A stretch of 64,000 bases of DNA from a virus: positions 1 to 64,000 of IMG/VR virus record IMGVR_UViG_3300041583_000284. One strand, 5' to 3'. A program made the translations under genes and the position numbers. Positions 815 through 43,684 of the stretch are shown here, one piece after another. Under the pieces are notes generated by a model. That model did not search any database. It saw only the letters and a list, made by a program, of their open reading frames with translations, and was not told the DNA's origin. The stretch's first letter is position 1; every line of letters begins with the position of its first letter.

Positions 815-3262
815 ATGGCGATTGAGAAGCCAATGCAGCCGTCAGACTTTCTGGCGCAAGAGGACCTCCACGAGATAGAGGTCGAGGTGCTTGACCCCCT
901 GTCGGTTGTAACCGAGGGGGACGACGGTAGTGTCACAATAGAGTTTGGTGACGAGACTGAGGCTAAGCCCGCCGCCATGGAGCACTCTGCCAACCTCGCT
1001 GAGTTTCTTGACGAGGGTGAGCTGACGACGATCGCCACTGATCTGGTTGAGGGCTTCGAGATGGACCGCCGCAGCCGTAAGGACTGGGCCGAGTCTTACA
1101 TCAAGGGTCTTGAGCTGCTTGGGATGCGGATCGAGGACCGCATGGAGCCGTGGGACGGCGCGTCGGGCGTGTTTCACCCCATGCTGGCCGAGGCTGTGGT
1201 GCGGTTCCAAGCGCAGGCCATGGGCGAGATGATGCCGTCGGGTGGCCCAGCAAAGACCAAGATCATGGGCAAGTCCACCCGGGAGAAGGTCGAGCGGGCC
1301 CAGCGCGTTGAGCAGGAGCTGAACTACCAGATCACCGAGCGCATGCCGGGCTACCGGGAAGAGACCGAGCAGATGTTGTTCAAGCTCCCGCTGGCGGGCT
1401 CTGCGTTCAAGAAAATTTACTTCGACCCCACCACCAAGCGGGCGCGGGCGGTGTTCGTGCAGGCTGAGGACTTCGTTGTGTCCTACGGCGCGTCTGGGCT
1501 GGAGGACTGCCCTCGCTATACCCATGTGATGAAGCGGACCCCCAACGAAGTGCGAAAACTCCAAGTGGCGGGGCTCTACATCGACGAGGATCTCCCAGAG
1601 CCCACGCGGGAGACGACTGACATCGAGGAGGCATACGCCAAGATCACGGGCGTTGATGTCCCAACGGAGCAGGAGGAGCGGCACACTCTGCTCGAGATGC
1701 ACGTGGACATCTCCCTCCCTGCGCCGTTTGACGACCCCGAAGGGATCGATCGGCCGTATGTGGTCACCATTGACCTCACTTCACGCACAGTTCTGGCCAT
1801 CTACCGCAACTGGTACGAGGACGACGAGACGCGGACCAAGCGGCAGCACTTCGCCCACTACCCGTACCTGCCGGGTATGGGGTTTTATGGCACGGGTCTA
1901 ACCCATCTGGTGGGCGGCCTCACGAAGTCTGCCACCTCAATCCTTCGCCAGCTGATCGACGCTGGCACTCTGTCCAACCTACCTGCGGGTTTGAAGTCAA
2001 GATCGTTGCGCATCAAGGGGGACAATAGCCCCCTGAAGCCGGGCGAGTGGCGGGACGTGGACATCGTGGGCGGATCGCTCCGCGACTCGCTGTTTCCCAT
2101 GCCCTACAAGGAGCCCAGCGCTGTCTTGTACCAGCTGCTCGGGAACGTGGTGCAGGAAGGCCGGCGGATCAGCTCCATGGCGGACCTGCAGGTCAGCGAT
2201 ATGAGCGCACAGGCACCGGTGGGGACCACACTGGCCCTCCTCGAGCGCAACATGAAGGTGATGTCGGGCATCCAGCACAGGCTGCATGCCGCGATGAAAC
2301 AAGAGCTCCGCCTGCTTGCTCGGGTCATTCGGGACTTCATGTCCAGCAAATACGACTATTTTGAAGATGATGATTTTGACCGGGCAGAGGACTTCGGGAC
2401 GGGGGTAGACATTATCCCGGTGTCGGACCCCAACGCGGCCACCACAGCGCAGCGCATCATGCAGTATCAGGCTGCACTGCAGCTCTCTACACAGGCTCCG
2501 CAGCTGTACGATATGGGCAAGCTCCACCGGCAGATGCTGGAGGTGCTGGGCATCCAAGACGCAGCGGAGATTATCAAGCTCCCAAGCGAGCTGAAGCCCA
2601 AGGACCCGGTGGCCGAGAACATGGCCATCCTGAAGCAAGAGCCTGTGAAGGCGTTCCTGTATCAGGACCACGAGGCGCACATCGCAGTTCACATGGCTGC
2701 GGCGCAGGACCCCAAGCTCATGCAGATCGTGGGCCAGTCTCCGTTTGCGTCGGCAATCCAGAACGCTATGGCGGCTCACATCACGGAGCACGTGGCTCTA
2801 GCGTACCGCAAGTCGCTGGAAGCGCAGCTGGGCGTACCGCTGCCCGCAGAGGACGAGCCCATGCCCGAGGATGTTGAGCTGGAGCTGTCAAGGCTCGTGG
2901 CTGCGGCGGCGGGTAAACTGTTGCAGAAGAATCAGGCCGAGGCTGCACAGCAGCAGGCCGAGCAGCAGGCCAAGGACCCACTCACCCAGATCCAGCTGAA
3001 GGAGTTGGAGCTCGAGGAAATGGGCATCAAGCTCGACGCGGAGATCAAGACCAAGCGCCTCGAACTCGACGCAATGAAGGCGATCGACGCATCTGCTATC
3101 CAGCGCGAGCGTATCGCGGCCGAGGACAAGCGGGAAGGTGCTAGGCTCGGAGTGCGTGTTGCAGAGGATGCCACCAACGCGACACGGGAAGACAAGGCCA
3201 AGGGGCTCGCCATGGGGATTGACATCGCCAAGCAGCTCGCAGGAAATAGGGGGAAAACCTGA
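815..3262 (+). CDS. portal protein
   Basis: 815-aa ORF with an AGAGG RBS. It is the first large gene after the terminase when the window ends are joined, and is followed by scaffold and capsid genes. Long C-terminal coiled coil (AEAAQQQAEQQAKD...ELEEMGIKLDAEIK) as in podovirus portals. Assignment rests on position, size and memory of portal sequences. Confidence 0.75.
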   Translation: MAIEKPMQPSDFLAQEDLHEIEVEVLDPLSVVTEGDDGSVTIEFGDETEAKPAAMEHSANLAEFLDEGELTTIATDLVEGFEMDRRSRKDWAESYIKGLELLGMRIEDRMEPWDGASGVFHPMLAEAVVRFQAQAMGEMMPSGGPAKTKIMGKSTREKVERAQRVEQELNYQITERMPGYREETEQMLFKLPLAGSAFKKIYFDPTTKRARAVFVQAEDFVVSYGASGLEDCPRYTHVMKRTPNEVRKLQVAGLYIDEDLPEPTRETTDIEEAYAKITGVDVPTEQEERHTLLEMHVDISLPAPFDDPEGIDRPYVVTIDLTSRTVLAIYRNWYEDDETRTKRQHFAHYPYLPGMGFYGTGLTHLVGGLTKSATSILRQLIDAGTLSNLPAGLKSRSLRIKGDNSPLKPGEWRDVDIVGGSLRDSLFPMPYKEPSAVLYQLLGNVVQEGRRISSMADLQVSDMSAQAPVGTTLALLERNMKVMSGIQHRLHAAMKQELRLLARVIRDFMSSKYDYFEDDDFDRAEDFGTGVDIIPVSDPNAATTAQRIMQYQAALQLSTQAPQLYDMGKLHRQMLEVLGIQDAAEIIKLPSELKPKDPVAENMAILKQEPVKAFLYQDHEAHIAVHMAAAQDPKLMQIVGQSPFASAIQNAMAAHITEHVALAYRKSLEAQLGVPLPAEDEPMPEDVELELSRLVAAAAGKLLQKNQAEAAQQQAEQQAKDPLTQIQLKELELEEMGIKLDAEIKTKRLELDAMKAIDASAIQRERIAAEDKREGARLGVRVAEDATNATREDKAKGLAMGIDIAKQLAGNRGKT

Positions 3263-3444
3263 TGGAAACCCTAGAACGCCTCCGGCGGACACTTGCCACC
3301 CAGCGCCAAGACCTCGCGGACCATCTGGCGCTGGGTGGCGCAGCAGACTTCAACGCCTATTCCAAAGCAGTAGGGGCTATTCAGACCCTAGATATGGTGT
3401 TGGGAGAGATTGCCGACATCGAAAAGAAGCAGCTTGAAGAATAA
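3262..3444 (+). CDS. hypothetical protein (60 aa)
   Basis: ATG overlaps the portal stop (TGATG), so it is translationally coupled. Helical, no motif. Confidence 0.45.
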   Translation: METLERLRRTLATQRQDLADHLALGGAADFNAYSKAVGAIQTLDMVLGEIADIEKKQLEE

Positions 3445-3528
3445 ACTGCTCCTCGCTATCATATGACCCCATACCGTGGGACCAGCCCACGCTAGGTAAC
3501 GGCGTACCTTAAACGCTGCGGAGAGACC

Positions 3529-3900
3529 ATGTTTACACCAACCGGCGTCAAGATCGACGAGGAGTTGCGCGCCAAACTCCCGGAACCCAAGGGCTACAAG
3601 CTCCTGATTGCTGTTCCCAAGCTGAACAAGACGACCGAGGGCGGGGTACACCTGCCCGATGAGCGTCGGGACGCAGAAGAAACTGCCTCCATCATTGGAT
3701 ACGTTCTCAGGCTAGGTTCCGATGCCTACGGAGACACGACCAAATTCCCCGGCGGCCCGTGGTGCAAGGAAGGCGACTTCATCATCTTCCGTTCGTACTC
3801 CGGCACGCGCTTCAGAGTGCATGGGGACGAGTTCCGCATCATCAATGATGACACTGTGGAAGCAGTTGTCGAAGACCCACGGGGGTACAGCCGCGCATGA
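3529..3900 (+). CDS. GroES/Cpn10-like co-chaperonin fold protein
   Basis: GGAGAG RBS. The pattern KLLIAVPK..TTEGGVHLPD...IIGYVLRLG....KEGDFIIF..YSG......DEFRIINDDTVEAVV follows the GroES signature (GGI.LP, GD.V.F, mobile loop). Confidence 0.55.
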   Translation: MFTPTGVKIDEELRAKLPEPKGYKLLIAVPKLNKTTEGGVHLPDERRDAEETASIIGYVLRLGSDAYGDTTKFPGGPWCKEGDFIIFRSYSGTRFRVHGDEFRIINDDTVEAVVEDPRGYSRA

Positions 3901-4799
3901 ACGAGAAAGCCAAAAAGCCCGCTGAAGACGACGACTTCGAGATTGAAATTGTCGATGATACGCCTGCGGATGACAAGGGTCGGCCACGCCGCCCGGAAGG
4001 CGCCGCACCGGAAATCCCGGAAGATGATGATCTGGAGCAGTATTCTGATGGCGTGAAGAAGCGCATCAGCAAGCTCAAGTACGAGTTCCACGAGGAGCGC
4101 CGCCGCGCGGACGAGTCCGCCCGGCTGCGGGACGAGGCTGTTTCCTACGCCCAGCGCCAGCAAGAAGAAATCGCTGGGTATCGCAAGCGCCTCTCTGATG
4201 GCGACGCAGCCTTCGTTTCGCAGGCTCAGGGCCGGGTAAAGTCCCAGCTGGAGCAGGTGAAGGCTAAGATGAAAGCCGCCTATGAGGCAGGGGACTCAGA
4301 TGCGTTCGTGTCTGCAAGTGCCGAGCTCGCCGACATCAAGGGCGAAGAAGGACGGCTCGCGTCATACCGGCCACCTCAGCCACAGCAGGCGGCCACCCCG
4401 GCCCCCGCTCCGCAGCGCCCCTCAGTGCCAAAACCGTCGCCCCGGGCAGAATCTTGGGCCACGACAAACGACTGGTTCGGCAAGGACGCGGAGATGACGG
4501 CTCTTGCGTTCGGCGTCCACGAGCGCGCGGTGCGCGAAGGTGTTGCGCCAGACAGTGAAGCGTACTATACTGAGATAGACACCGCTATGCGACAGCGGTT
4601 TCCAGACAAGTTTGCGACCAGCGGGGAGTCAACACCCCGGAAGCAACCGGGTTCCGTGGTGGCCCCCGGCGGTAGAAGTACCGCAGCAACACCTCGCAAG
4701 GTTACGTTGACAGCGACGCAGGTTTCTCTCGCCAAGAAGCTCGGGTTGACGGTAGAACAGTACGCGGCGCAGATTATCAAGGAGATGAAGAATGGCTGA
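3897..4799 (+). CDS. putative scaffolding protein
   Basis: ATGA overlap with the upstream gene. 300 aa, acidic N-terminus, long charged helical region, Pro/Ala-rich linker. Sits between portal and capsid. Confidence 0.55.
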   Translation: MNEKAKKPAEDDDFEIEIVDDTPADDKGRPRRPEGAAPEIPEDDDLEQYSDGVKKRISKLKYEFHEERRRADESARLRDEAVSYAQRQQEEIAGYRKRLSDGDAAFVSQAQGRVKSQLEQVKAKMKAAYEAGDSDAFVSASAELADIKGEEGRLASYRPPQPQQAATPAPAPQRPSVPKPSPRAESWATTNDWFGKDAEMTALAFGVHERAVREGVAPDSEAYYTEIDTAMRQRFPDKFATSGESTPRKQPGSVVAPGGRSTAATPRKVTLTATQVSLAKKLGLTVEQYAAQIIKEMKNG

Positions 4800-31983: not shown

Positions 31984-32205
31984 TCATGGGGTTCGCCATA
32001 TACGCAACCCCAAAATGTTGTCTTTGAAGGCCCGCCGACAGGCGATACGGATCTCCAGTTTTCTCGCTATGACCTCGGCCTGCTTCTGGCAGGCTTGGGC
32101 GTTTATGCAGGGCACGAACACTGACATCCCGGGATAGAGCTCCTTCCACGGGACCACGATGCGAAGCCCGTCCGGGCATAGGTCAAGTAGGGTCCGAACT
32201 GTCAT
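31984..32205 (-). CDS. hypothetical protein (73 aa), last gene of the - strand replication operon
   Basis: ATG at 32205 overlapping the primase-helicase 3' end, followed by the 31895-31914 terminator. Confidence 0.4.
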   Translation of the reverse strand: MTVRTLLDLCPDGLRIVVPWKELYPGMSVFVPCINAQACQKQAEVIARKLEIRIACRRAFKDNILGLRIWRTP

Positions 32206-35092
32206 GAGGTGCCTCAAAATGCATGGGGATCTTCAGCACGTCCACCGGGGGCAGGCTCATCGAGGTGCCTTTGGACAGCCGCACGCGGACTTTCTCAGCC
32301 TTGACCTTCTTCGTCAGCTCATCTTGCACCGATGCATAGTTGATCTGCTGCTCGGACAACCACTCCTTGAACGGACGGATCAACAGGTACAACTGCTTGA
32401 GGTCTGTCTCGTACCGCCCCGCAAAGTCTGTGCTGCGGGGCATCTGCTCTGGCACCGCCATGTGCTCCATCGTGGTCGATGTGCCCCGGGCCCGAAGGTC
32501 TATGGTCGATTTGATCTGCAGGATGCGGCCCCAGTTCTCGTAGACGTACTCGTTGACCAGCGCCACTGCGTCAATCGTGAGTTCCCCGCTCGCCTGCTGG
32601 TTCGGGCGCAGCACCTTGGCGATGACGTAATCGCGGAGCGTCTTGACGTTGTACTGTAGCAGACCAAGGTGGTTGCAGATCACGGCCGCGGCGATAGATG
32701 CTGCCATGGCGGACGACCAGAAGCGGTTCTCCGGCCCCAAGTTCGCTGTGGTGTCGATCTGGCGCTGGACAGTCTGCACCAGTATCTGGACCTCCTGCAG
32801 GTTCTGGAGGACGTACTGAACGAAGGGCACACCGGCATGACCGTAGTGCAGGAGCAGGTCCCGGCTGAACTTGTCGGTGTCCTCCTTGTCAGACTTCTGC
32901 GAGAACAGCCGGCCAACCTCAATCTCGAGGACCCGCTGGGCTTCTGCTTTTGGCATGGCCTTGGCGCTGGCCACCTTGTCGATCAGGCTGGCATTGCCAG
33001 ATGTGATGAACAGCAGGTTCCAAGGATCGCCGCGGAAGCGCTCCGAGTTGCCGCTGGACGACATCCTGTTGCGCTGCTGGCCCCCGGTCACCTGATAGAT
33101 GAGGTCTGATGCGTGGTCGGGGCGGATGTTGGTCACCTCGTCCATGCACACAGGGATGCTGTGCATCACGTCAGCCCGGTTCATGCGAGAGTTGTGGGTG
33201 TCCCGCTCGTCAAGGATCAGCTTCTTCGGGTTGCCCCAGATAGATAGCGCTGCGAGCTTCGCTGTGGTTTTGCCGAACCCAGAATCTTTGGACCACAGGT
33301 GGATCAGGGCAGCGCTTTCCGGCAGGAACTTCATCAGGGCAGAGCCGAACCCCGCGCAGACCACGAGCTGGTGCAGCTCGAAGCCGGGCCGATTGTAGAA
33401 GGCCATTGTCTCCTTCCAGCCCTCCAAGGTGCCTTTGGGGGTGAAAAACTCGGTCAGCCCCCGTGTGCCTGCTGCTGGTGCATTGTGCTCGATACGGTCG
33501 CTTTGGATGACTTGCTCACCCAGCACGAACCCGTTGAACTCGCCGACCCAGCCAAACTGGCGGTGCGCGTTGTCTGCTTGCGATCTATATTGCAATTCTC
33601 TCACCCATGTTTGTGTGTACTGCATAAGCGCGTCCACTTCTTTGTTGATAGCCGCCACACCCTGCATAGCGAGGGCGCGTCGAAATTCCTCTTTCGAGGT
33701 GACTGCGTAGAGGGGCACAACGAACGTGCGGGCCTTGTCTTGGGGCAGATGATACCGCATCTCGATAACCTCGCCTTGCTCGGGATCAACCAGCCGCCGG
33801 AGCACGTAGATGTCGTGGAGCCAGACCAGCTTTGAGTCCACCACCCCTTCGGCATCCTTGGTCTCTAGGTATACTCCGCCCCCGATACCGCGCTTGTAGG
33901 GGTACGGCAGAGGAGGAAGCACCATCTTGCCGTCGCCGCGGACTTCCACGACCAGCTTCGTGCCTTCTGGAGCCTCGAACACTTCCACAGGGCCCTCGGC
34001 CTGTATCAGGGAGTTCCCCAAAACAATCGGGGACTTGATTTTGCCCCAGTGCGGGCAGCCTTCGCAGCCGCCGGGGTTCAACTCGTCAAACCGCACACAG
34101 AGATAGGGACCCTTGATCTGGGAGGCCTTGTACGCAGTGTCTTCAGCGTCGTAGTCCGGGTGCCCCGCAGACAGCCAATGGATGGCCTGCTGCTCGGCGC
34201 AGTGTGTCGCGATGGACAGCCCTGCACGCCACAATGGTTCTGGCACAGTTGTCGGGTCTGACAGCATGGCCCCTATCTGTGCGCAGCCGGTGCCCGCAGC
34301 GGTCTTTCGGGCGATCTTCTTGAACGATGCTTCTATGTTGCCCCGCAGGGCATCCATGACAGCGCTGGTGCCTACCACGGCGGCGGCCGCAGCGGAAACC
34401 TTCATGGCAGGGTCTGCAAACAGGCCTGCTGGTGCCGAGACCGCTGCGTGGGGCGCTATGCACGCATTGAACAGCTCAAGAGATGTTGCCTCATGATCCC
34501 CGTTGGCCAGTATCGTGACCGGGTTCGGCGGGGTGTCCTTGTAGTTGTGGGTGCCCGGCATGCGCAGCACCCGTGCAGCATCTGCAGTTGCCGTGGTATC
34601 GCAGCAAAAGCCTAGTGTCTTGCAGGCCGACTTGAACCGTGTCGCCACAGGCAGCCAGCTTGCATAGGGCACCGCAGAAGTGAGCGGCCAGTAGACATGC
34701 AGGCCCCGGCCCGAGTTTACGATGATCGGTTTTGGCAATTTCAGCTTCTTGACGAAGCCGCGCAGAGACAGCAGTGCTTCTCCTTGGTTGGGGTAGTCCT
34801 TGCCCGCCCCGCAGTCCAGATCGAGAAAGAAAGACCCCATCGAAGTAACGTTGCCAGCCTCACGGCTGTCTGCTGTAGCGAAACGCCCCAGCGCGAAATA
34901 GGCATCACGCTCGTTGCTGTCGAAGTTTAAGGCCGCATGGATAGCGGCCTCTGGGGTATCGTAGAATTTCTGGGTGCGTTTGCCCTTGTCGGGCCCTAGT
35001 GCAAGGATGCTGTAGTATCCGGCGTCCCCCGTGACACGCCTTACGAAGTCTGTTGTTTCCATAGCCGCCACTCTTTGGATGATGCTCGCCAA
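32183..35092 (-). CDS. bifunctional primase-polymerase / superfamily 3 (D5-like) helicase
   Basis: N-terminal prim-pol-like block (FFLDLDCG...GRGLHVYWPL). Central and C-terminal P-loop WSKDSGFGKTT with downstream DE (CMDEVT). The start is ambiguous: TTG at 35092 or ATG at 35062. Confidence 0.75.
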   Translation of the reverse strand: MASIIQRVAAMETTDFVRRVTGDAGYYSILALGPDKGKRTQKFYDTPEAAIHAALNFDSNERDAYFALGRFATADSREAGNVTSMGSFFLDLDCGAGKDYPNQGEALLSLRGFVKKLKLPKPIIVNSGRGLHVYWPLTSAVPYASWLPVATRFKSACKTLGFCCDTTATADAARVLRMPGTHNYKDTPPNPVTILANGDHEATSLELFNACIAPHAAVSAPAGLFADPAMKVSAAAAAVVGTSAVMDALRGNIEASFKKIARKTAAGTGCAQIGAMLSDPTTVPEPLWRAGLSIATHCAEQQAIHWLSAGHPDYDAEDTAYKASQIKGPYLCVRFDELNPGGCEGCPHWGKIKSPIVLGNSLIQAEGPVEVFEAPEGTKLVVEVRGDGKMVLPPLPYPYKRGIGGGVYLETKDAEGVVDSKLVWLHDIYVLRRLVDPEQGEVIEMRYHLPQDKARTFVVPLYAVTSKEEFRRALAMQGVAAINKEVDALMQYTQTWVRELQYRSQADNAHRQFGWVGEFNGFVLGEQVIQSDRIEHNAPAAGTRGLTEFFTPKGTLEGWKETMAFYNRPGFELHQLVVCAGFGSALMKFLPESAALIHLWSKDSGFGKTTAKLAALSIWGNPKKLILDERDTHNSRMNRADVMHSIPVCMDEVTNIRPDHASDLIYQVTGGQQRNRMSSSGNSERFRGDPWNLLFITSGNASLIDKVASAKAMPKAEAQRVLEIEVGRLFSQKSDKEDTDKFSRDLLLHYGHAGVPFVQYVLQNLQEVQILVQTVQRQIDTTANLGPENRFWSSAMAASIAAAVICNHLGLLQYNVKTLRDYVIAKVLRPNQQASGELTIDAVALVNEYVYENWGRILQIKSTIDLRARGTSTTMEHMAVPEQMPRSTDFAGRYETDLKQLYLLIRPFKEWLSEQQINYASVQDELTKKVKAEKVRVRLSKGTSMSLPPVDVLKIPMHFEAPHDSSDPT

Positions 35093-36798: not shown

Positions 36799-38340
36799 TT
36801 AGTCAAGTATTTCTTTGTAGAGGGTCGTAAGTTTCATGTGGTCACCTTCGCGGGTGTCCAGCATGCTGTACAGGTGTCGCTCCACAGGCGATCCCTGCAG
36901 CTGCACCACCGTGCACTTATCCGTCTGGCCAGACCGGTGTACCCGGGCGTTGGCCTGTGCGTATATTTCCAAGGACGATGTTGGCCCCCACCAGACCACG
37001 ACGTTCGCCGCTGTCAGGGTCACACCATGCGCTGCTGCCTGCGGCTGGATCAGCAAGACCTGCGGGTCTGCTTCACGCTGGAACCGCTGGAAAATCTCCG
37101 TGCGCTTGCTCACAGGCACGTCGCCTCGGATGATGTCCACAGAGTAGCCGTCAGCCCGCATCTTCTCTGCCAAGATGTCGGTGATGTGCGTATAGGGCAC
37201 GAATACCAGAACCTTCTTGGACGCCTCGGCTATGACTTCCTTGAGCACCGTGTAGCGGTTCCCGATGTCGAACTCCAACACGTTGCCGTCGTCGTCGTAC
37301 ACGGCGCCGCAACTAATTTGGATTAATTTATTCATGCCCACCGCAGCGTTCACCGCGGACACGACAGACCCCGAGGTCTCCAGCAGGAGGTTCTTGCGCA
37401 ACTTCTCGTAGTAGGTTTTCTGCTGCTTTGTGAGCTCCACGGCGCGCTTGACGTACACCATATCTGGTAGGTCCATGCACTCTTCCTTGGTGAAGCGGAT
37501 GGCCGGCTGCAGGGCTTTGTGCACGATCTGGGACGACTCTTTTCGGGGCACCCACTTGAACTGGGTGATCTTAATCATCACCATGTCCTTGAAGGAGCTG
37601 AACGTGCGGGGCACCCCGGTGGGGTTCACGAGCTTCGCCAAGCCGTAGGCGTCCTCTGGGCCCTGCGCGGCAGGTGTGCCAGTCATCATCCACAGCCACG
37701 TGTCGGGGCACGCCTTCAGGATCGCGTTGAGTGTCTTCCACCGCTTGCTCTGGGCGTTCTTATAGGACGTGGCCTCGTCCACGATTATCAGATCGAAGCC
37801 GCCGTTGATGATCTCGTCTTCCACAATCTCCACGCCGTCGTAGTTGATGATGACGAACTCCGCGCCCTCGGCGAGAATCTTCTTGCGCTTGACGGGGGTG
37901 CCGTGGGCGATGCTCACCGTGCGGTGCATGGCGAAGCTAAAGAGGTCGCCCTTCCATGCCACGTCCATGATTGACACTGGACAGATCACCAGCACCCGGC
38001 GGATGCGTTTGGTTTTCATCAGGAAGTCCGCGGCCCATATGGTGCTGGCTGTCTTGCCTGAACCTGCCTCGGAAAAGCAGAACGCCTTCTTGTGCAGCGT
38101 GAGAAAGGCTGCGGTCTTCTTCTGGTGGGACATAGGCTTGTGCAGCCCGGTCCACTGATAGCGGCCCTCGATAGGAGAGGGGACCTTTATGTTCATGGCG
38201 ATCAAGCGCTGCACTGTGGGCATGTCCCACCGCACCAGCACCTCGTGCTCCCCCAAGAGGTGGGCTTTGTCCACCGCCGCCATGATGTGGGCAGGCTCCT
38301 TGACTCGCAAGAGCAAGGCTTTGTTGTCGATGATCTGCAT
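36799..38340 (-). CDS. SNF2-family DEAD/H helicase
   Basis: GSGKT Walker A (EAGSGKTAST), DEATSYKN motif II, a C-terminal helicase domain ending in HRSGQT-like motif VI (VHRSGQT). Confidence 0.75.
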   Translation of the reverse strand: MQIIDNKALLLRVKEPAHIMAAVDKAHLLGEHEVLVRWDMPTVQRLIAMNIKVPSPIEGRYQWTGLHKPMSHQKKTAAFLTLHKKAFCFSEAGSGKTASTIWAADFLMKTKRIRRVLVICPVSIMDVAWKGDLFSFAMHRTVSIAHGTPVKRKKILAEGAEFVIINYDGVEIVEDEIINGGFDLIIVDEATSYKNAQSKRWKTLNAILKACPDTWLWMMTGTPAAQGPEDAYGLAKLVNPTGVPRTFSSFKDMVMIKITQFKWVPRKESSQIVHKALQPAIRFTKEECMDLPDMVYVKRAVELTKQQKTYYEKLRKNLLLETSGSVVSAVNAAVGMNKLIQISCGAVYDDDGNVLEFDIGNRYTVLKEVIAEASKKVLVFVPYTHITDILAEKMRADGYSVDIIRGDVPVSKRTEIFQRFQREADPQVLLIQPQAAAHGVTLTAANVVVWWGPTSSLEIYAQANARVHRSGQTDKCTVVQLQGSPVERHLYSMLDTREGDHMKLTTLYKEILD

Positions 38341-38672: not shown

Positions 38673-39344
38673 TCATTGTCCATGGTGGGGGCACTCCGTT
38701 ACAGGGCAATAGTTGCGGCACAGGCCCGAGGGGCTCGGGTTCCATACGCCAGTCTCGAACGCTCCGAGCAGCTTGGAGTATTTGGCCAGCCACCCCGCCC
38801 ACATCTGCTTGCGATCGCGCCTGTGGTAGGTGGCCTTTATCATCTGGTTCGGGACCACAAAGAGCAGGGCCCCGCGCACTTCCTTGATCTCAGGGTACAA
38901 GGCGAAGATCATGATCGCCATGAGCTCCAGCTGCCCGGTGTCTGCGTACCGGCTGGACTTGCCAGTCTTGTAGTCCACGTAGAAAGCCACGCCCTTCTCA
39001 CGCTGCAAGATGATGAGGTCACCGATGCCCCGCACAAAGCAGTCCTTGGCGAAGAAGGTGCAGCCCTCCAGCTTGGTGTTCAGGGCCATCTTGAGTTCGC
39101 ACAACCGCTCCCCCTTGATATTCTTCAACGCGTCCAGCACTGGCTTCACGTGGACGAACCGGCCCTCGAGCTCGGTGTCGTCCCGCACGTACTCCTCGCA
39201 TGCGGTGTGGAACTCCTCGCCATAGGCTGTCGCCGCGGTCGGAGCACTCGTGTACTCCTTGGTGACGCGGGTGTGGTAGTATTGTTTGGCGCATGTCAGA
39301 AAGCCTTTGAGGCTGCTGAACGACCATGCTGGTAGTTTGTTCAT
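38673..39344 (-). CDS. PD-(D/E)XK nuclease, Cas4/RecB-like with C-terminal Cys cluster
   Basis: GIGDLIIL...YVDYKTGK (D..D/ExK core). One N-terminal Cys (LTCAKQYY) plus C-terminal CRNYCPVTEC suggests an Fe-S cluster as in Cas4-type exonucleases. Confidence 0.65.
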   Translation of the reverse strand: MNKLPAWSFSSLKGFLTCAKQYYHTRVTKEYTSAPTAATAYGEEFHTACEEYVRDDTELEGRFVHVKPVLDALKNIKGERLCELKMALNTKLEGCTFFAKDCFVRGIGDLIILQREKGVAFYVDYKTGKSSRYADTGQLELMAIMIFALYPEIKEVRGALLFVVPNQMIKATYHRRDRKQMWAGWLAKYSKLLGAFETGVWNPSPSGLCRNYCPVTECPHHGQ

Positions 39345-40297
39345 CAAGTGTCTCCATAGTTCTGGGCAGAGCCCGCTTCACAATCGACTGGCAAGCCCTT
39401 GGCCCACTTAGGCAGCCAGCGCATGCAGTCCTCCACGTAGGCCTTGGCTGTCTCTTCCTCCGCCTTGGGCACGACAATAAGTGCGGAGTCGTGCACGGTC
39501 AGGGCGATGGGGTATTCTTTTTTGATCTGGAGCATCTGCTCCGCCACGATGATGCGGGCCAGCGCTTGTGTAACATTCTCGATCACAAGAGCGCCGTATA
39601 CCTTCTTGCGGCTGGTGCCGCGCCCTGCGTAGTCGAACTGCCACCCTCGCTCGGTCTGGTGCCCTTGCAGGTCGGGGTACTGCACGTAGAGGCCGGAGGG
39701 CAGGCGGATGCCGAACCGGTCTGGATCCACCCCAAGGACACCGGGCTTGCCGAAATGGTAGGCCGTCTCACGGGTCATGTAGGTCAGCATGTTCCCCGCG
39801 TCTTTCCACAGCTTGACGATACGTGGATTGGCCGCGCGGTAGATCTTCACGATACGCTGGCACTCGTCCAGCTCGAGGGGGATGCCGTAGGTGCCTTTCA
39901 TGGTCCCCTGAAACTTGTCGGGGCCCATGCCAAATCCGCAGCCCAGAACCACACCCTTGCCCACCTGCCGCTGGTCTTTGGTAACGTCGGCTTCCAGCAC
40001 GCCGTAGATGGGGACCGCCATCTTCTTGTAGGGGTCTTCCTTGTCCCGAAAGGTCTGGAGCATGTCCGCCTGCTCCGCGAGCCACGCCAGAACACGCGCT
40101 TCGATTTGGGAGGAGTCGGCCTCGATGATGACATACCCGGGAGGAGCTTCGATGGTGGACTTTATCTTCTTGGCGTTGGGCCCCCGGCTCGGCAGGTTTT
40201 GCAGGTTCACGGAGTCTGAGTTGTGCACGAGCTTGCCATTGGCCACGAACCGGTGCCGGGGCCCGCAATTCTTGATGTCATAGACTGGGACGAGCAT
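39344..40297 (-). CDS. DNA polymerase I family, C-terminal half preceded by a C-intein fragment
   Basis: MLVPVYDIKNCGPRHRFVANGKLVHN|SDSVNLQNLP. Then motif A ADSSQIEARVLA, motif B RQVGKGVVLGCGFGMG, motif C LTVHDS. Confidence 0.85.
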   Translation of the reverse strand: MLVPVYDIKNCGPRHRFVANGKLVHNSDSVNLQNLPSRGPNAKKIKSTIEAPPGYVIIEADSSQIEARVLAWLAEQADMLQTFRDKEDPYKKMAVPIYGVLEADVTKDQRQVGKGVVLGCGFGMGPDKFQGTMKGTYGIPLELDECQRIVKIYRAANPRIVKLWKDAGNMLTYMTRETAYHFGKPGVLGVDPDRFGIRLPSGLYVQYPDLQGHQTERGWQFDYAGRGTSRKKVYGALVIENVTQALARIIVAEQMLQIKKEYPIALTVHDSALIVVPKAEEETAKAYVEDCMRWLPKWAKGLPVDCEAGSAQNYGDT

Positions 40298-41211
40298 ATT
40301 TGCGCCTCTTTGTTATCTCTGTGTTGCTTTGCCCCTGCTTGATCCACATTCGCAGGGTCTCATATGTCAGGTCTGGGCGCTGCGCTTGGAGGGCCCGGAT
40401 GCGCTCGCCGGTTATGGACCGCTTGTAAGCCCTCTTGTTGCACGCCTGTTCCTTGCGAGTAGCCCAGCGCAGATTACCCGGCTCGTAGTGCCGGTTATTG
40501 TCGATCCGGTCTATGCTGTGGTCCTTTGAGGGGCGGGGGCCTGTGTTGGCTAGAACCCAAGCAGCTGCGGCGAGGGGCGTCGGGAAACAAAACTGTATCC
40601 CGCGCCCTCCATAGTCAGAGTAGGAAGCACCTGCGGGGTTGGTACAGCGCTGTCTGGCGCCCACCATGATGGACACTAGCGCACGGGCATGCGCAAGGGG
40701 GTGCGGGGTACGGGGGCGCGCGGCGGCTGCATCTGAAGCCTTCTTGGCCAGCTGCGTTCTTTGCGCCGGGGGGAGTGTAGCCATCCGGGCCTTGGAAGCG
40801 CAGCTCCGGCACATCCTCGTCCCTCCCGACAGCAGGTCCGACACGCGAATTGAAGCCCCGCGTCCGCAAGTACACTGACACAAAACCTTAGACTTTGATG
40901 CGACCGCGCCTGTGCACGTTCGGGTCCACTGCGTCAGGATCAGGGCGCCCTCCAGACGTGAGGTAGTGGCCTCCCTGCATCGCGTCTCGTAGGCCAATCT
41001 CTCCGGCGTCCGTAAATACAACATGGTCTTCTGTCCCCCTCACCCCATCCCACTCGATCACTTCAGCAAACCCGCTGAACACGACCCCCTCGTGCTGTAC
41101 GAAAGCTACCCCGTCCCATACGAGGTCGTCGGGCATGACATCTGTTATCTTCTTCTCGTGCATAGTGCCTGAAGTGTCAAGCACTGTGACCGCAGTATCG
41201 GCCACTAAGCA
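40220..41211 (-). mobile_element. split intein (N fragment 107 aa, C fragment 26 aa) with intervening HNH gene
   Basis: Cys1 codon at 41211-41209, terminal His-Asn and +1 Ser codon at 40219-40217. The extein junction restores TGRWSG/SDSVNLQNLP. Confidence 0.7.
40278..41024 (-). CDS. free-standing HNH homing endonuclease between the two polymerase halves
   Basis: HSIDRIDNNRHYEPGNLRWATRKEQ is an HNH signature, with an N-terminal Cys-rich Zn-ribbon. Lies in a separate frame and overlaps both polymerase ORFs. Paralogue of 52256-52891. Confidence 0.75.
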   Translation of the reverse strand: MLYLRTPERLAYETRCREATTSRLEGALILTQWTRTCTGAVASKSKVLCQCTCGRGASIRVSDLLSGGTRMCRSCASKARMATLPPAQRTQLAKKASDAAAARPRTPHPLAHARALVSIMVGARQRCTNPAGASYSDYGGRGIQFCFPTPLAAAAWVLANTGPRPSKDHSIDRIDNNRHYEPGNLRWATRKEQACNKRAYKRSITGERIRALQAQRPDLTYETLRMWIKQGQSNTEITKRRKYARPSL

Positions 41212-42177
41212 TCCAGACCAGCGCCCTGTGTGTGCCCCATAGTACCGAAGCGGCACCGGGAACATACCCCGGTCAGCGATCCCGATGAACCGCGCGGTGC
41301 GCGTCTCTTCGAGGGTGGACTTGTTCCCAAGCCGCGCTGCAACGAGGGCCTGCACGTCAGGGTCGTCGTGCTCAAGCAGCGCCTTGAACTCCTCGTCGGT
41401 CTTGGCGAAGGCCCACGCTTCCTTGCCGGTGGTGGCGCTGACCTTGCGTGGGGGGTCCACGCCCATGTCCTGCAACAACCCTGCAAACTTATCGTTGGAC
41501 ATCAGGTCCTTCTTGTCCGCCCCCACGCGGTCCAGCAACGCCTGCTTGGCCCTGACAGTCTCGATCAGGTGGGCTTCCAGCTTGGGCTTGTTCAGTTGCA
41601 GCTGGGGTTCTGTGAACATGCGCAACGTCATGTCAATCAGCTGGAGTTCCTTTTTCGGGAACCCCCCGGGGATAGAGCCCATGAAGATGTTGAAGAGCTG
41701 ATAGCACAGGTCAGTGTCGTGCTTGCAGTATTTGCCGTAGGCTGCCAGCTCGGTAGGGGTGAAGTCTGCCCGCCGCATCCCCATCGCCCGCAGCACCTCG
41801 TCCCCCTTGGGCGGCAGGTTGTACCGCTTGGCGAGGGCTGCGAGGCCGTGCGATGCGTCGGGGCCATGAATGGCCCGTGACATAGACAACGTGTCCAGCC
41901 ACAACTTAGGCTTGATGCCTAAGCGCCACGCAAGGATCGCCCCGTCGAACAGGGTGTTGTGCGCGAGGATCGCAGCGTTTGACCAGTCGATGGTGTGCAG
42001 CGCCGCGTATATCTCGAGGATGTCGCCCGAGAGCCACTTGGCTTTCTTGCCATTCTTCTTGACGGACAGCCCGATAAGTTCAAACCGGGGGTCCCGCACG
42101 TATTCTTCCGTGGTGATCTTGGATAGGCTGTACTCCTTGGAGTAAAACGTCTCCGCGTCTATCGTATAAAGATCCAT
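40888..42177 (-). CDS. DNA polymerase I family, N-terminal half (3'-5' exonuclease + palm start) ending in an N-intein fragment
   Basis: AGGAGG RBS. Exo motifs (IDAETF.., NTLFDG). Extein ends ...YGAHTGRWSG, followed by CLVADTAVTVLD...GTEDHVVFT (Hint blocks A/B) and a stop. Confidence 0.85.
   Translation of the reverse strand: MDLYTIDAETFYSKEYSLSKITTEEYVRDPRFELIGLSVKKNGKKAKWLSGDILEIYAALHTIDWSNAAILAHNTLFDGAILAWRLGIKPKLWLDTLSMSRAIHGPDASHGLAALAKRYNLPPKGDEVLRAMGMRRADFTPTELAAYGKYCKHDTDLCYQLFNIFMGSIPGGFPKKELQLIDMTLRMFTEPQLQLNKPKLEAHLIETVRAKQALLDRVGADKKDLMSNDKFAGLLQDMGVDPPRKVSATTGKEAWAFAKTDEEFKALLEHDDPDVQALVAARLGNKSTLEETRTARFIGIADRGMFPVPLRYYGAHTGRWSGCLVADTAVTVLDTSGTMHEKKITDVMPDDLVWDGVAFVQHEGVVFSGFAEVIEWDGVRGTEDHVVFTDAGEIGLRDAMQGGHYLTSGGRPDPDAVDPNVHRRGRIKV
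41905..41923. repeat. variant palindrome CTTAGGC-TTGAT-GCCTAAG inside the DNA polymerase N-half CDS
   Basis: Read directly. Encodes RLGIKPK in frame. Both arms carry the same compensated change. Confidence 0.8.
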
Positions 42178-42223
42178 TAGTTATTCCTCCTAATCCAGTC
42201 TGCAAACAACTTCTAGTGAGCTG

Positions 42224-42706
42224 CTAGGGCACCTTTCTCCAGTAGCTGCCGAGGGCGCTTGCACGCTTCGACAAGATTAGATCAGCGCGCCTCCCCGCAG
42301 CCCACAGCGTTATGCCATGGCCGGGGGACTTGCCGACAGAGCCGTCGGGCCGCTCGAACTTCGGCTTGCCCAGCACCAACATCATCCCTTTGGCTCTCTT
42401 GGCGGCGTCTTGCCACCACGGGGCGCTTGTGCGGTCGGGCGTCAGTGCGATCCCGTTACCGTGCAGGAAGAACTTGTCTAGCCACGGCGAAAGCCCGTTG
42501 CGCCCCCCAAAGGGCGGGTTCATCCAAACAAAACCTTGCCATTGCGCGGTCAGGCTGTCCGAACTGATCCATCCTTTGCAGGGTACGTGTTGCGGCCCTT
42601 CCAGTGGGGCTGCAACGTCGAGGTCAAAAGTTACGCCCAAGGCGTCAAAGATATATTTTGGGGTATACCAATCGTCTGTTGCGCCGGGGGCTTCCCACGC
42701 GCTCAT
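42224..42706 (-). CDS. DNA N6-adenine methyltransferase (phage Dam-like)
   Basis: DDWYTPKYIFDALGVTFDLDVAAP ... FVWMNPPFGG (NPPF catalytic motif). Confidence 0.75.
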   Translation of the reverse strand: MSAWEAPGATDDWYTPKYIFDALGVTFDLDVAAPLEGPQHVPCKGWISSDSLTAQWQGFVWMNPPFGGRNGLSPWLDKFFLHGNGIALTPDRTSAPWWQDAAKRAKGMMLVLGKPKFERPDGSVGKSPGHGITLWAAGRRADLILSKRASALGSYWRKVP

Positions 42707-42855
42707 TGGTCACCCTCGTCGGCGTTCTTCTCCCGGCGCGCGAGAGCTTCGCCAACATCCCGATGGATGCGCGCGGCCATCAAAGCCGCGGCACCAACCA
42801 AGAAAAACAGCACGAGCCACAGGATTGAGGTGGCTACGTAGCCCAAGCACGCCAT
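42703..42855 (-). CDS. small membrane protein (50 aa)
   Basis: ATG at 42855 overlaps the upstream stop and its own stop overlaps the Dam start (ATGA). One TM segment (ILWLVLFFLVGAAALMAA). Below the track cutoff. Confidence 0.35.
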   Translation of the reverse strand: MACLGYVATSILWLVLFFLVGAAALMAARIHRDVGEALARREKNADEGDQ

Positions 42856-43388
42856 CACAGGAACTCGCCATGCTTGGCACTGATCGCGATCAAGTGCTCT
42901 GCCTGCGAGCGGGCGTCGTCCAGCGCGTTGTGGTGGGTGCCGCTGCGAGCCATCTTCACGTCAGGATACATACCCTTAACAGTGCGGTAGCACTTGTCTT
43001 TCCGGAACTCCCACATCGGCACGCCGCATCGCCTCCCCGACTCGCGCGTCAATACGTTGTCAAAAGGTGCCCCTTTGCCCCATACGCCTTTTAGGCTGTC
43101 ACCGTAGGCGCATACAAACTGCATAAAGTCGCGCAAAGCCACGTCAAGTCCAATGGCTTCGTCTTGGGCTTCGGTCAGTGCGTTGCGAGCACTGTCTCCT
43201 TGCCGCAGCCACCACATGACAGTGCTGGGGTCAATAACGGCACCTGAGCGCACGGCGCTGTGAAGCGACACAACGCGGTAGAACGTCTCGTCAGTCACGC
43301 CCATGGCGTTAAACGCCACGGCACCAATAGCCACGATTGGTGCATCCGGGCGAGTGCCCATGGTCTCTAGGTCAAGCATGATGTGCAT
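42855..43388 (-). CDS. DEDDh 3'-5' exonuclease (DnaQ-like)
   Basis: MLDLETMG (Exo I), the C-terminal HHNALDDARSQAEH (Exo III, H-x4-D). Confidence 0.7.
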   Translation of the reverse strand: MHIMLDLETMGTRPDAPIVAIGAVAFNAMGVTDETFYRVVSLHSAVRSGAVIDPSTVMWWLRQGDSARNALTEAQDEAIGLDVALRDFMQFVCAYGDSLKGVWGKGAPFDNVLTRESGRRCGVPMWEFRKDKCYRTVKGMYPDVKMARSGTHHNALDDARSQAEHLIAISAKHGEFL

Positions 43389-43684
43389 CAGTTTGTCTCC
43401 TCAATAAGCAGATAACAGGCTGCGAGGTAGACGATTGCCCCAAGCACCTCGGCCTGCGCGCGGGCGGGTTCCTTACGGCCCAGCATGCCAGAGGCTTCCT
43501 GTGTTTTCTTCATGGCTTGGCCGAGGGAGTACCCGGGCCCCACCATACGTCCGATCTCCATGATGGGTTGGCGGTCAAAGGGCTTGCCGTTGGCGTGGCG
43601 CTCCTTGCCTTTGCCTGCGGCCGCTTGGTTGTAGGCCGCGCCCAAGACGCGGCCCAGCCCTACGTAGTCGGGATTCTCAATCAT
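43388..43684 (-). CDS. hypothetical protein (98 aa), possibly DUF5664-like nucleotide pyrophosphohydrolase-associated domain
   Basis: GKGKERHA...W motif recalled from small phage proteins. Family label from memory only. Confidence 0.4.
   Translation of the reverse strand: MIENPDYVGLGRVLGAAYNQAAAGKGKERHANGKPFDRQPIMEIGRMVGPGYSLGQAMKKTQEASGMLGRKEPARAQAEVLGAIVYLAACYLLIEETN

Follow-up and report, generated by a model that had tools for sequence, protein, structure and literature searches.

A gene for a family A DNA polymerase (PolA) was found to be broken into two parts in a phage genome of about 64 kb, the virus record IMGVR_UViG_3300041583_000284 (positions 1-64,000; this whole stretch of 64,000 nucleotides is called the window hereafter). 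The break was found at the conserved TGR/NLQN site of the polymerase, and the two parts were found to be separated by a third gene of the HNH type that is read in another frame. The arrangement very probably represents a naturally split, trans-splicing class-1 intein in which an HNH homing endonuclease gene (HEG) is interlocked out of frame, and by which the replicative polymerase of the phage has been fractured.

Three overlapping open reading frames (ORFs), each in its own frame, were found at 40888-42177, 40278-41024 and 39344-40297, and all features of the locus were located on the minus strand. An earlier reading of this DNA (the original prediction) had described a split intein with an HNH-type ORF in another frame that overlaps the two polymerase halves by 137 nt (40888-41024) and 20 nt (40278-40297), and its coordinates and overlaps were reproduced. 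The features are as follows, where IntN and IntC denote the N-terminal and C-terminal intein fragments.

40888-42177, minus strand: PolA N-half gene, 429 amino acids (aa); 3'-5' exonuclease domain and N-terminal part of the polymerase domain, followed by IntN and TAA
41212-42177, minus strand: N-extein, 322 aa, ending in ...YGAHTGRWSG (conserved TGR motif); co-linear with the empty allele, locus L249
40891-41211, minus strand: IntN, 107 aa, CLVADT...GTEDHVVFT...RIKV, followed by TAA
41209-41211, minus strand: codon of IntN Cys1
41023-41034, minus strand: IntN block B, TEDH
40220-41211, minus strand: whole inserted element (IntN, HNH gene and IntC), 992 nt; missing in the empty allele, which is 95.4% identical
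40278-41024, minus strand: HNH-family gene, I-HmuI-like, 248 aa; frame +1 relative to IntN
41022-41024, minus strand: HNH ATG, embedded in the block-B His codon CAT (41023-41025)
40888-41024, minus strand: dual-coding overlap of 137 nt; IntN residues 63-107 (frame 0) and HNH residues 1-45 (frame +1)
40800-40874, minus strand: HNH zinc knuckle, C51-x-C53 ... C72-x-x-C75; invariant in the alignment of relatives
40437-40511, minus strand: HNH catalytic-core-like motif DRIDNNRHYEPGNLRWATRKEQACN, HNH residues 172-196
40305-40310, minus strand: Shine-Dalgarno (SD) sequence AAGAGG of the C half, 7 nt 5' of the ATG and within the HNH 3' coding region
40278-40297, minus strand: 20-nt overlap in which the HNH gene ends and the C half begins; recurs in most relatives
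39344-40297, minus strand: PolA C-half gene, 317 aa, made up of IntC (26 aa) and the C-extein (291 aa) with motifs A, B and C
40220-40297, minus strand: IntC MLVPVYDIKNCGPRHRFVANGKLVHN, 26 aa, with blocks F and G, followed by the +1 Ser of SDSVNLQNLP
40217-40219, minus strand: +1 Ser codon TCA, C-extein nucleophile; Gln (CAA) in the empty allele
40091-40120, minus strand: polymerase motif A, in the C half
39923-39970, minus strand: polymerase motif B, in the C half
39485-39502, minus strand: polymerase motif C, in the C half

The N half and the C half would be translated separately, the latter from its own SD sequence and ATG inside the 3' end of the HNH gene, followed by the association of IntN and IntC into a HINT fold and the ligation of the exteins by protein trans-splicing. 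The product would be a polymerase of 613 aa with the junction ...TGRWSG-SDSVNLQNLP, for which the predicted tryptic junction peptide is WSGSDSVNLQNLPSR.

In Pfam, the N half was found to contain DNA_pol_A_exo1 (E = 1.3e-6) and the C half DNA_pol_A (E = 2.4e-29), and partial matches of the polymerase ORFs to pola and PRK14975 were found in NCBIfam. The exonuclease domain, the TGR motif and motifs A, B and C were all located, which identifies the pair as a family A polymerase. The PHROG polymerase profile phrog_17 was divided contiguously between the halves, positions 670-977 covering N-half residues 1-322, followed by positions 978-1232 covering C-half residues 28-316. The earlier claim that one family A polymerase is encoded by two ORFs was borne out by both the Pfam domains and this contiguous profile.

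The uninterrupted polymerase of Pseudomonas phage KPP25 was found to align with the two halves in direct succession, with a single codon intervening, and that of Rhizobium phage RHph_TM3_14A was likewise unbroken across the junction. The contiguous metagenomic polymerase P0002 was found to contain 613 aa, equal to the predicted spliced length, and to align without gaps at 96.6% aa identity. The exteins were in this way co-linear with polymerases, the exact extein junction given in the original prediction is one through which KPP25 and P0002 run, and its product of about 613 aa has an intein-free counterpart of the same length. As these three homologs are contiguous over the insertion site, the insertion lies at a conserved site of the host protein.

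The gene of P0002 (L249) was found to be co-linear with the joined exteins, each being 1842 nt long, with 95.4% nt identity and 85 differences, and the inserted element was on this basis delimited to 40220-41211. The codon changes between the two comprised 54 synonymous and 21 nonsynonymous changes. Four of the 85 differences were found within 6 nt at the insertion point, which reads TCTGGA/TCA in the window and TCCGGG/CAA in L249. The junction of the empty allele, ...CGCTGGTCCGGG/CAAGACTCCGTGAAC..., also given as ...GGGCGCTGGTCCGGG/CAAGACTCCGTGAACCTG..., is a candidate target site of the HNH protein.

About 160 loci with the element were gathered from metagenomes and IMG/VR and classified, of which 104 were non-redundant. 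The residues Cys1, T60 and H63 (block B T60-E-D-H63) and the terminal N133 were found to be invariant (alignments A2, A3 and A5), and Cys1 was present in every N half listed. IntC was found to end in VYDI...HRFVANGKLVHN/S, with Ser or Cys at the +1 position in every classified locus. The N part had been described earlier as an extein ending in ...YGAHTGRWSG followed by 107 aa with Cys1 and TxxH, and the C part as carrying blocks F and G, the His-Asn pair, the +1 Ser and motifs A, B and C; both descriptions held, Cys1 and TxxH being invariant in relatives as well.

A profile of the fused IntN and IntC was compared with the PDB, and seven of the eight matches were inteins (NrdJ-1, Spl DnaX, DnaB, DnaE and CDC21), with E values of 0.005 for NrdJ-1 and 0.0066 for Spl DnaX. 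In hhalign, full-length alignments were obtained with the split inteins NrdJ-1 (91.7% probability, E = 8e-7) and Npu DnaE (92.2%, E = 6e-7), and the C-terminal part of the NrdJ-1 template was found to agree with the PDB alignment. The AlphaFold2 (AF2) model of the fused fragments (alignment A5) was confident for IntN, with a predicted local distance difference test score (pLDDT) of 85-93, and a Foldseek search with the IntN model returned the IntN chain of Npu DnaE (probability 0.98) and gp41-1 (0.90), followed by other inteins and Hedgehog. Moraxella phage Mcat20 and the metagenomic locus L125 were found to carry contiguous homologous mini-inteins at this PolA site.

Two results weigh against the intein assignment. 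No Hint or intein model of Pfam or NCBIfam was found in either half, and because of this the identity of the element was argued from profile, hhalign, fold and comparative evidence. The 26-aa IntC was left unfolded in the AF2 model (pLDDT below 40), with no alignment depth for IntC, so the model backs the fold of IntN only. A phmmer search of the N half against PDB sequences gave no match beyond noise. Alignments A4 and A6, meant to add depth for the fused fragments, were misaligned by MAFFT and were discarded. By its motifs and profile matches, the element is a class-1 intein with a HINT domain.

In PHROG, the middle gene was found to match phrog_374 (E = 9e-33) and phrog_3377 (E = 5e-27), two families labelled as HNH endonuclease, and tblastn relatives were found in 962 phage records at 26-35% identity, the matches mostly extending from residue 40-50 on. 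Its close relatives (alignment A7) were found to contain an invariant zinc knuckle CxC...CxxC followed by the core DRIDN...Y.PGNLRWA...Q..N, in which D172, R173, D175, N176, W187 and N196 were invariant (full core D172-R173-I-D175-N176...N184-L-R-W...N196). The AF2 model of the protein was confident (mean pLDDT 90.3) and contained a helix at residues 7-29 (pLDDT 97-98). In a fold search of BFVD, 85 matches were obtained at E<=1e-3 (top E 1.6e-17), many of them annotated as HNH/HTH homing endonuclease or AP2-domain proteins, and the keyword string on some of them is presumably that of the I-HmuI PDB entry. We take the corresponding segment of I-HmuI to be VDHKDGNKDNN...NLRWVT...N, so that its metal-binding Asp and Asn are kept in the core and its His75 is replaced here by Arg. 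From the profiles and the model, the middle gene is assigned to the I-HmuI-like phage homing-endonuclease family, and its nuclease activity is a prediction from that family.

The gene would have arisen as a free-standing HEG lodged in the intein, with its first ~45 codons overprinted in frame +1 on the part of IntN that follows block B. The HNH protein would presumably be translated at a low level by internal initiation, and it would presumably nick or cut intein-less alleles during co-infection, followed by repair that copies in the 992-nt element and the +1 Ser codon.

Several observations count against an active enzyme. Pfam HNH_3 gave a weak match at HNH residues 160-194 (13.1 bits against a cut-off of 24.8), remained below threshold in all 47 relatives tested and gave even a weak match in only 6 of the 47; no significant PDB match was found by Foldseek, by the A7 profile search or by phmmer; and an invariant Arg (DRIDN) occupies, family-wide, the usual general-base His position of I-HmuI-type enzymes. 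They favour a decayed or repurposed HNH-like DNA-binding protein within an element that is now transmitted only vertically. This alternative is unlikely, as the ORF was found to be intact and under purifying selection in more than 80 loci, with the zinc knuckle and core invariant and the model confident, and as the family extends through the 962 phage records and its BFVD matches include annotated HNH homing endonucleases. The occurrence of the element is, moreover, sporadic relative to polymerase similarity, and HNH-less derivatives exist, as a homing cycle expects. The designation "HNH endonuclease" in the original prediction was right as a family assignment, by PHROG and BFVD, whereas the usual general-base His was found to be replaced by Arg. 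The Arg was invariant throughout the HNH clade, and the annotation "HNH endonuclease" is very widespread in phages; this label may cover enzymes with non-canonical chemistry.

The block-B codon was found to be CAT, which places an ATG in frame +1 (Cys1+187 nt), in 57 of the 75 loci in which block B was located automatically, and an SD-like AGGGG or AGGAA was found ~9-12 nt 5' of the HNH ATG. Dual coding was measured over 44 non-redundant gapless loci as entropy at positions 1, 2 and 3 of the IntN-frame codons, as follows.

IntN only, codons 1-62: 0.59, 0.50 and 1.42
Overlap, codons 64-85: 0.62, 0.60 and 0.94
Overlap, codons 86-97: 1.16, 0.76 and 0.86

In codons 86-97 the most variable position was found to be the wobble position of the HNH frame. 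The frame +1 peptide (MSYSQTPERLAYETRCRE...) showed a mean identity of 56% in the overlap versus 33% upstream, and frame +1 contained no stops in the overlap versus 4.8 per sequence upstream. Judged by these substitution patterns, the 137-nt 5' overlap is conserved dual coding and no accident of ORF calling.

Against the use of the block-B ATG stand the gene callers, which mostly start the HNH gene downstream to give 200-225 aa, and an internal Met found in many relatives at HNH residue 32, where the window has Gln. The only starts 5' of the zinc knuckle in the window were the block-B ATG and two TTGs. A start at the TTG 40881-40883, just past the N-half stop, was considered less likely, since both the dual-coding signal and the confidently modelled N-terminal helix speak for the block-B ATG, which is taken as the predicted start. 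No conserved RNA structure was found by RNAalifold in 22 non-redundant loci, where the consensus energy was 0 to -3 kcal/mol and windows spanning the start gave -0.18 to -1.1 kcal/mol.

In the hhalign comparison, NrdJ-1 and Npu DnaE were found to have their canonical split points near IntN residues 88-93, whereas the actual break falls between IntN residue 107 and IntC residue 1, which is ~15 residues closer to block F. IntN was found to be 93-122 aa long among relatives, with a tail after ~residue 90 that was variable, poorly conserved as a peptide and modelled with low confidence; the tail may be a linker. In some relatives, KKYYLGES or TKLYRGKS was found 5' of the conserved Met, resembling the Npu strand RKYLGKQN. 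The length of IntC is fixed at 26 aa by an in-frame TAA 5 codons 5' of its ATG. The C half was found to contain its own strong SD sequence AAGAGG with a 7-nt spacer, and SD-like motifs were found before the equivalent ATG in relatives. The C-inteins of the fractured genes described in 2009 are roughly 37-41 aa long, in contrast to the 26 aa found here; if it works as such, a 26-aa IntC would, to our knowledge, be shorter than any other natural C-intein of the standard type.

This IntC lacks the first beta-strand of canonical C-inteins, which tells against splicing, and 26 aa may not suffice for it. The polymerase might be a non-covalent two-subunit enzyme in which the intein fragments are dead or serve as dimerisation handles, and such split phage enzymes exist in Aeh1 NrdA (PMC2677866) and in exo/pol-split T7-like PolAs (PMC10201439); the unusual shortness of IntC and its unfolded state in the AF2 model would fit such an enzyme. 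It is nevertheless improbable, since Cys1, the block-B Thr and His, the terminal Asn and the +1 Ser or Cys, residues needed solely for splicing chemistry, were invariant in more than 100 divergent sequences. The break also falls within the TGR/NLQN active-site segment, where an unspliced insert of 133 aa would probably be disruptive.

The split layout was found in independent material, to an extent that chance would not produce. In an independent Logan assembly (locus L008), the N half was found exactly, at 100% identity, together with the same three genes, and in a second JGI sample (L089) a contig of 97-98% identity contained the same frames. A split gene with an HNH homolog in frame +1 was found in 86 of the 104 non-redundant related loci, the commonest form being that of the window (IntN of 105-111 aa, C half in frame +2, HNH/C-half overlap of 20 nt and IntC of 26 aa), with M[LR]VPVYDI...HN as the commonest 26-aa IntC. 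More than 100 N-half protein clusters (419-448 aa, 56-66% identity) were found to carry an intein-like tail with a stop 93-122 aa after Cys1, and many C-half homologs of ~315 aa were found with the same start point and 99-100% coverage of the C half. Within a large metagenomic phage family the split layout is the commonest state and no singular oddity; it is common in environmental phages, with hundreds of contigs carrying it. Its distribution was patchy, the closest polymerase relative being without the element and relatives of ~60% identity carrying it, and this scatter relative to polymerase similarity is, as far as sequence comparison goes, a signature of mobility.

That programmed ribosomal frameshifting or other recoding joins the ORFs into one cis-splicing precursor is very improbable. 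Relatives with a single-ORF intein through the region do exist (L235, L237, L238, L243 and L245), but in the window the reading frame would have to shift twice, the C frame is closed by a TAA 5 codons ahead of the IntC ATG, RNAalifold showed no conserved RNA structure near the overlap, and the C half has a strong SD sequence of its own. The chance that two indel errors of sequencing or assembly have turned a conventional contiguous intein, with its HNH domain in frame, into three adjacent overlapping ORFs in three frames is next to nil, because the same layout with the same frame relations was found in L008, in L089 and in the 86 divergent loci, each half has its own conserved start and SD sequence, the IntN frame of the 86 split loci was interrupted along the HNH gene by 17.4 stops on average and never by fewer than 4, and the HNH frame is shifted even in the contiguous relatives. 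One continuous ORF through the region, which the original prediction had named as the finding that would speak against it, is excluded because the element length of 992 nt is not a multiple of 3, a TAA lies upstream of the IntC ATG and the three-frame layout is conserved across loci.

The split intein with its out-of-frame HNH gene was accompanied by relatives in other states. A contiguous mini-intein without HNH was found in L125 and Mcat20. In L235, L237, L238, L243 and L245, one ORF was found to contain the N-extein, IntN, an odd linker of 130-230 aa, IntC and the C-extein, with the HNH gene wholly nested in frame +1 and 0 stops in the intein frame over inteins of 257-328 aa; Cys1 was located at position 5001 in L235, L237 and L238, at 212 in L245 and at ~4938 in L243. 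The HNH gene was gone from L009/L178 and L118, which were still split, with 8-56 nt from the N-half stop to the C-half ATG. It was deleted or truncated in the split locus L149, and a remnant of it (the first 85 aa) was fused in frame to IntC in L182. The loci L127, L128 and L130 were found to contain another insert of 1.1-1.25 kb, without HNH similarity, between the IntN stop and IntC, and in L127 the frame 5' of IntC encoded a Gly/Ser-rich repeat (GSGVGSG...).

By comparison of the loci, the states found are those of the gene-breaking model of Dassa et al. 2009, together with an out-of-frame state that was described recently. A wider reading, held at even chances, is that one PolA site preserves all the steps (mini-intein, out-of-frame nested HNH, fractured, and HNH-less split), with the HNH start interlocked with the block-B His, ~45 dual codons and a working intein made of a ~90-aa IntN and a 26-aa IntC without the first C-intein strand.

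At a second PolA site, in motif B, a related intein (...KGKIAELA/C...KLVHN/CGYGG) was found in L006, L007, L004, L125 and L235. L006 is Gardnerella phage vB_Gva_AB1 (MW387018; pol 1693-4596, with HNH-like sequence in frame +1 at ~3410-3772), L007 is Streptococcus phage Javan113 (HNH-like sequence at 3539-3775) and L004 is Javan422. The HNH-like sequence of the motif-B intein was out of frame with an open intein ORF in vB_Gva_AB1, Javan113, L125 and L235, and no HNH match was found in the motif-B intein of Javan422. The Streptococcus and Gardnerella phage inteins were considered as same-site relatives and were rejected, being located at this second site. An out-of-frame HNH intein is in this way present in a cultured phage in which the gene is annotated just "DNA polymerase". 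In L098, L176, L177, L181, L240 and L137, the C-half match was found to resume at query residue ~111-120, 1.2-2 kb downstream, which suggests a second insertion at motif B besides the fractured intein of the first site.

Around the locus, a minus-strand replication module was found to contain a DUF927 primase-helicase (32183-35092), an SNF2 helicase (36799-38340) and a PD-(D/E)XK nuclease (38673-39347), followed by the fractured polymerase and, on the other flank, a Dam methyltransferase (42224-42706) and an Rv2179c-like exonuclease (42855-43388). No sigma-70-like promoter and no intrinsic terminator was predicted on the minus strand in 39000-43500, which fits co-transcription, and the three locus genes are probably co-transcribed within this replication operon.

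In L249 (301-834, compared with 42178-42854 of the window), the gene of the Rv2179c-like exonuclease was found to abut the polymerase gene directly, whereas the window contains the additional Dam methyltransferase gene (42224-42706) and an ORF of ~50 aa between the two. The first 60 nt of the polymerase gene contained 22 of the 85 mismatches between the window and L249, and this cluster at the 5' end suggests a mosaic or recombination boundary.

A megablast search with 39000-42500 against phage records gave no match, and the phage is, at this level of similarity, without a close cultured relative. In the scan of genome collections, nearly all matches were found in metagenome-assembled genome bins of scattered taxa and phyla, from which no host could be inferred; they are probably mis-binned phage contigs. 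The sole isolate genome with an IntN relative was Methylobacterium platani PMB02 (contig039, NZ_LWHQ01000039.1; L260); its sequence matches residues 3-77 at 44% identity and may represent an intein in a prophage polymerase.

The fractured genes reported by Dassa, London, Stoddard, Schueler-Furman and Pietrokovski in 2009 (PMC2677866) comprised 26 loci in gp41, NrdA/NrdJ, IMPDH and DnaE. All endonucleases found there were of the GIY-YIG or Vsr-like kind, no PolA was among the host genes, and it was stated there that HNH and LAGLIDADG endonucleases "could" fracture genes; the endonuclease 3' end overlapped the IntC start by 6-69 bp, and a hairpin was found directly 5' of the endonuclease gene. 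The present locus was found to resemble these genes (gp41-1/-8, NrdJ-1, IMPDH-1, NrdA-2 and DnaE) in that the host gene is broken inside the intein, with the N part, the endonuclease and the C part on the same strand and in the same order, and in that separate ORFs are each fused to an extein with a genuine stop (TAA) and start (SD and ATG). The 20-nt overlap of the endonuclease with IntC falls within 6-69 bp, the origin is phage-like and metagenomic, and HEG-less derivatives occur in both (L009/L178 and L118 here, gp41-7 there).

Unlike in those genes, PolA is the gene that is broken, the endonuclease belongs to the HNH type and is not GIY-YIG or Vsr-like, it starts within IntN at the block-B His codon with 137 nt shared out of frame, and no conserved hairpin was found 5' of its start by RNAalifold in the 22 loci. 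The original prediction had placed the locus in this fractured-gene class, which was right, but a PolA host with an HNH gene extends the class. What is new beyond it, as read from the sequences, is the PolA host, the HNH-type endonuclease, the HNH start overprinted on IntN and the 26-aa IntC.

As in the Ssp and Npu DnaE split inteins, a replicative polymerase is made, here by prediction, from two trans-spliced gene products through a class-1 intein with Cys1. The halves of cyanobacterial DnaE, in contrast, are far apart in the genome and without an endonuclease gene, its IntC is 36 aa long and includes the strand missing here, and the polymerase belongs to family C and not family A.

Contiguous inteins with an out-of-frame EndoVII-like endonuclease have been described in actinobacteriophages (bioRxiv 10.1101/2025.01.02.630785), and a cyanobacterial dnaX intein with an out-of-frame LAGLIDADG endonuclease has also been described (bioRxiv 10.64898/2026.09.14.751524). 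The present element was found to share with them an endonuclease in another frame and the suppression of synonymous variation in the overlap, and a proposed origin by the invasion of a mini-intein by a free-standing HEG. Exactly that contiguous out-of-frame state was found in L235, L237, L238, L243, L245 and vB_Gva_AB1, whereas in the window the intein frame is closed, the gene is split and the endonuclease is of the HNH type, and contiguous and split states occur in one family at one site.

According to Gibb and Edgell as summarised in PMC2677866, the nrdA gene of Aeromonas phage Aeh1 is split by the HNH gene mobE and its halves assemble non-covalently, and in phage ShiLan a "hidden HNH" insertion in a methylase is read through as a loop (PMC11855218). 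In both, as here, an HNH-type mobile gene interrupts or overprints an essential phage gene of nucleic-acid metabolism, but neither involves an intein. By Czernecki et al. 2023 (PMC10201439), the T7-like PolA of cyanophage S-SBP1, divided into exo and pol parts, was presented as the first case of a split PolA. It resembles the present case as a phage family A polymerase made from two adjacent genes and differs in that the split lies between the exonuclease and polymerase domains, no intein or endonuclease is involved and the complex is thought to be non-covalent. Inteins are unmentioned in that reclassification survey of PolA (PMC10201439), and contiguous inteins in bacterial DNA polymerase I were mentioned earlier (PMC4760082). 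No description of a PolA split intein was found in a targeted full-text literature search of incomplete coverage, and a prior description is possible.

Gene callers were found to mis-annotate these loci systematically, as a "hypothetical protein", a truncated HNH and two "DNA polymerase" fragments, and recognition of the pattern would improve phage annotation. The split-intein toolbox could gain from this intein, which has a C fragment of just 26 aa and diverged orthologs in large number, and, if the reading is true, the intein would be of use in peptide-based protein semisynthesis. The conserved dual coding of IntN and the HNH N-terminus is a clean natural example of one selfish element overprinted on another. 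The finding would also fill in the gene-breaking model of 2009, in which fracturing driven by HNH genes was foreseen as possible and was not observed, and the presence of contiguous, nested, fractured and endonuclease-less states in one family makes the order of events testable. If the reading is true, the phage depends on protein trans-splicing for its replicative family A polymerase, and the same arrangement is carried by over a hundred environmental phage sequences.

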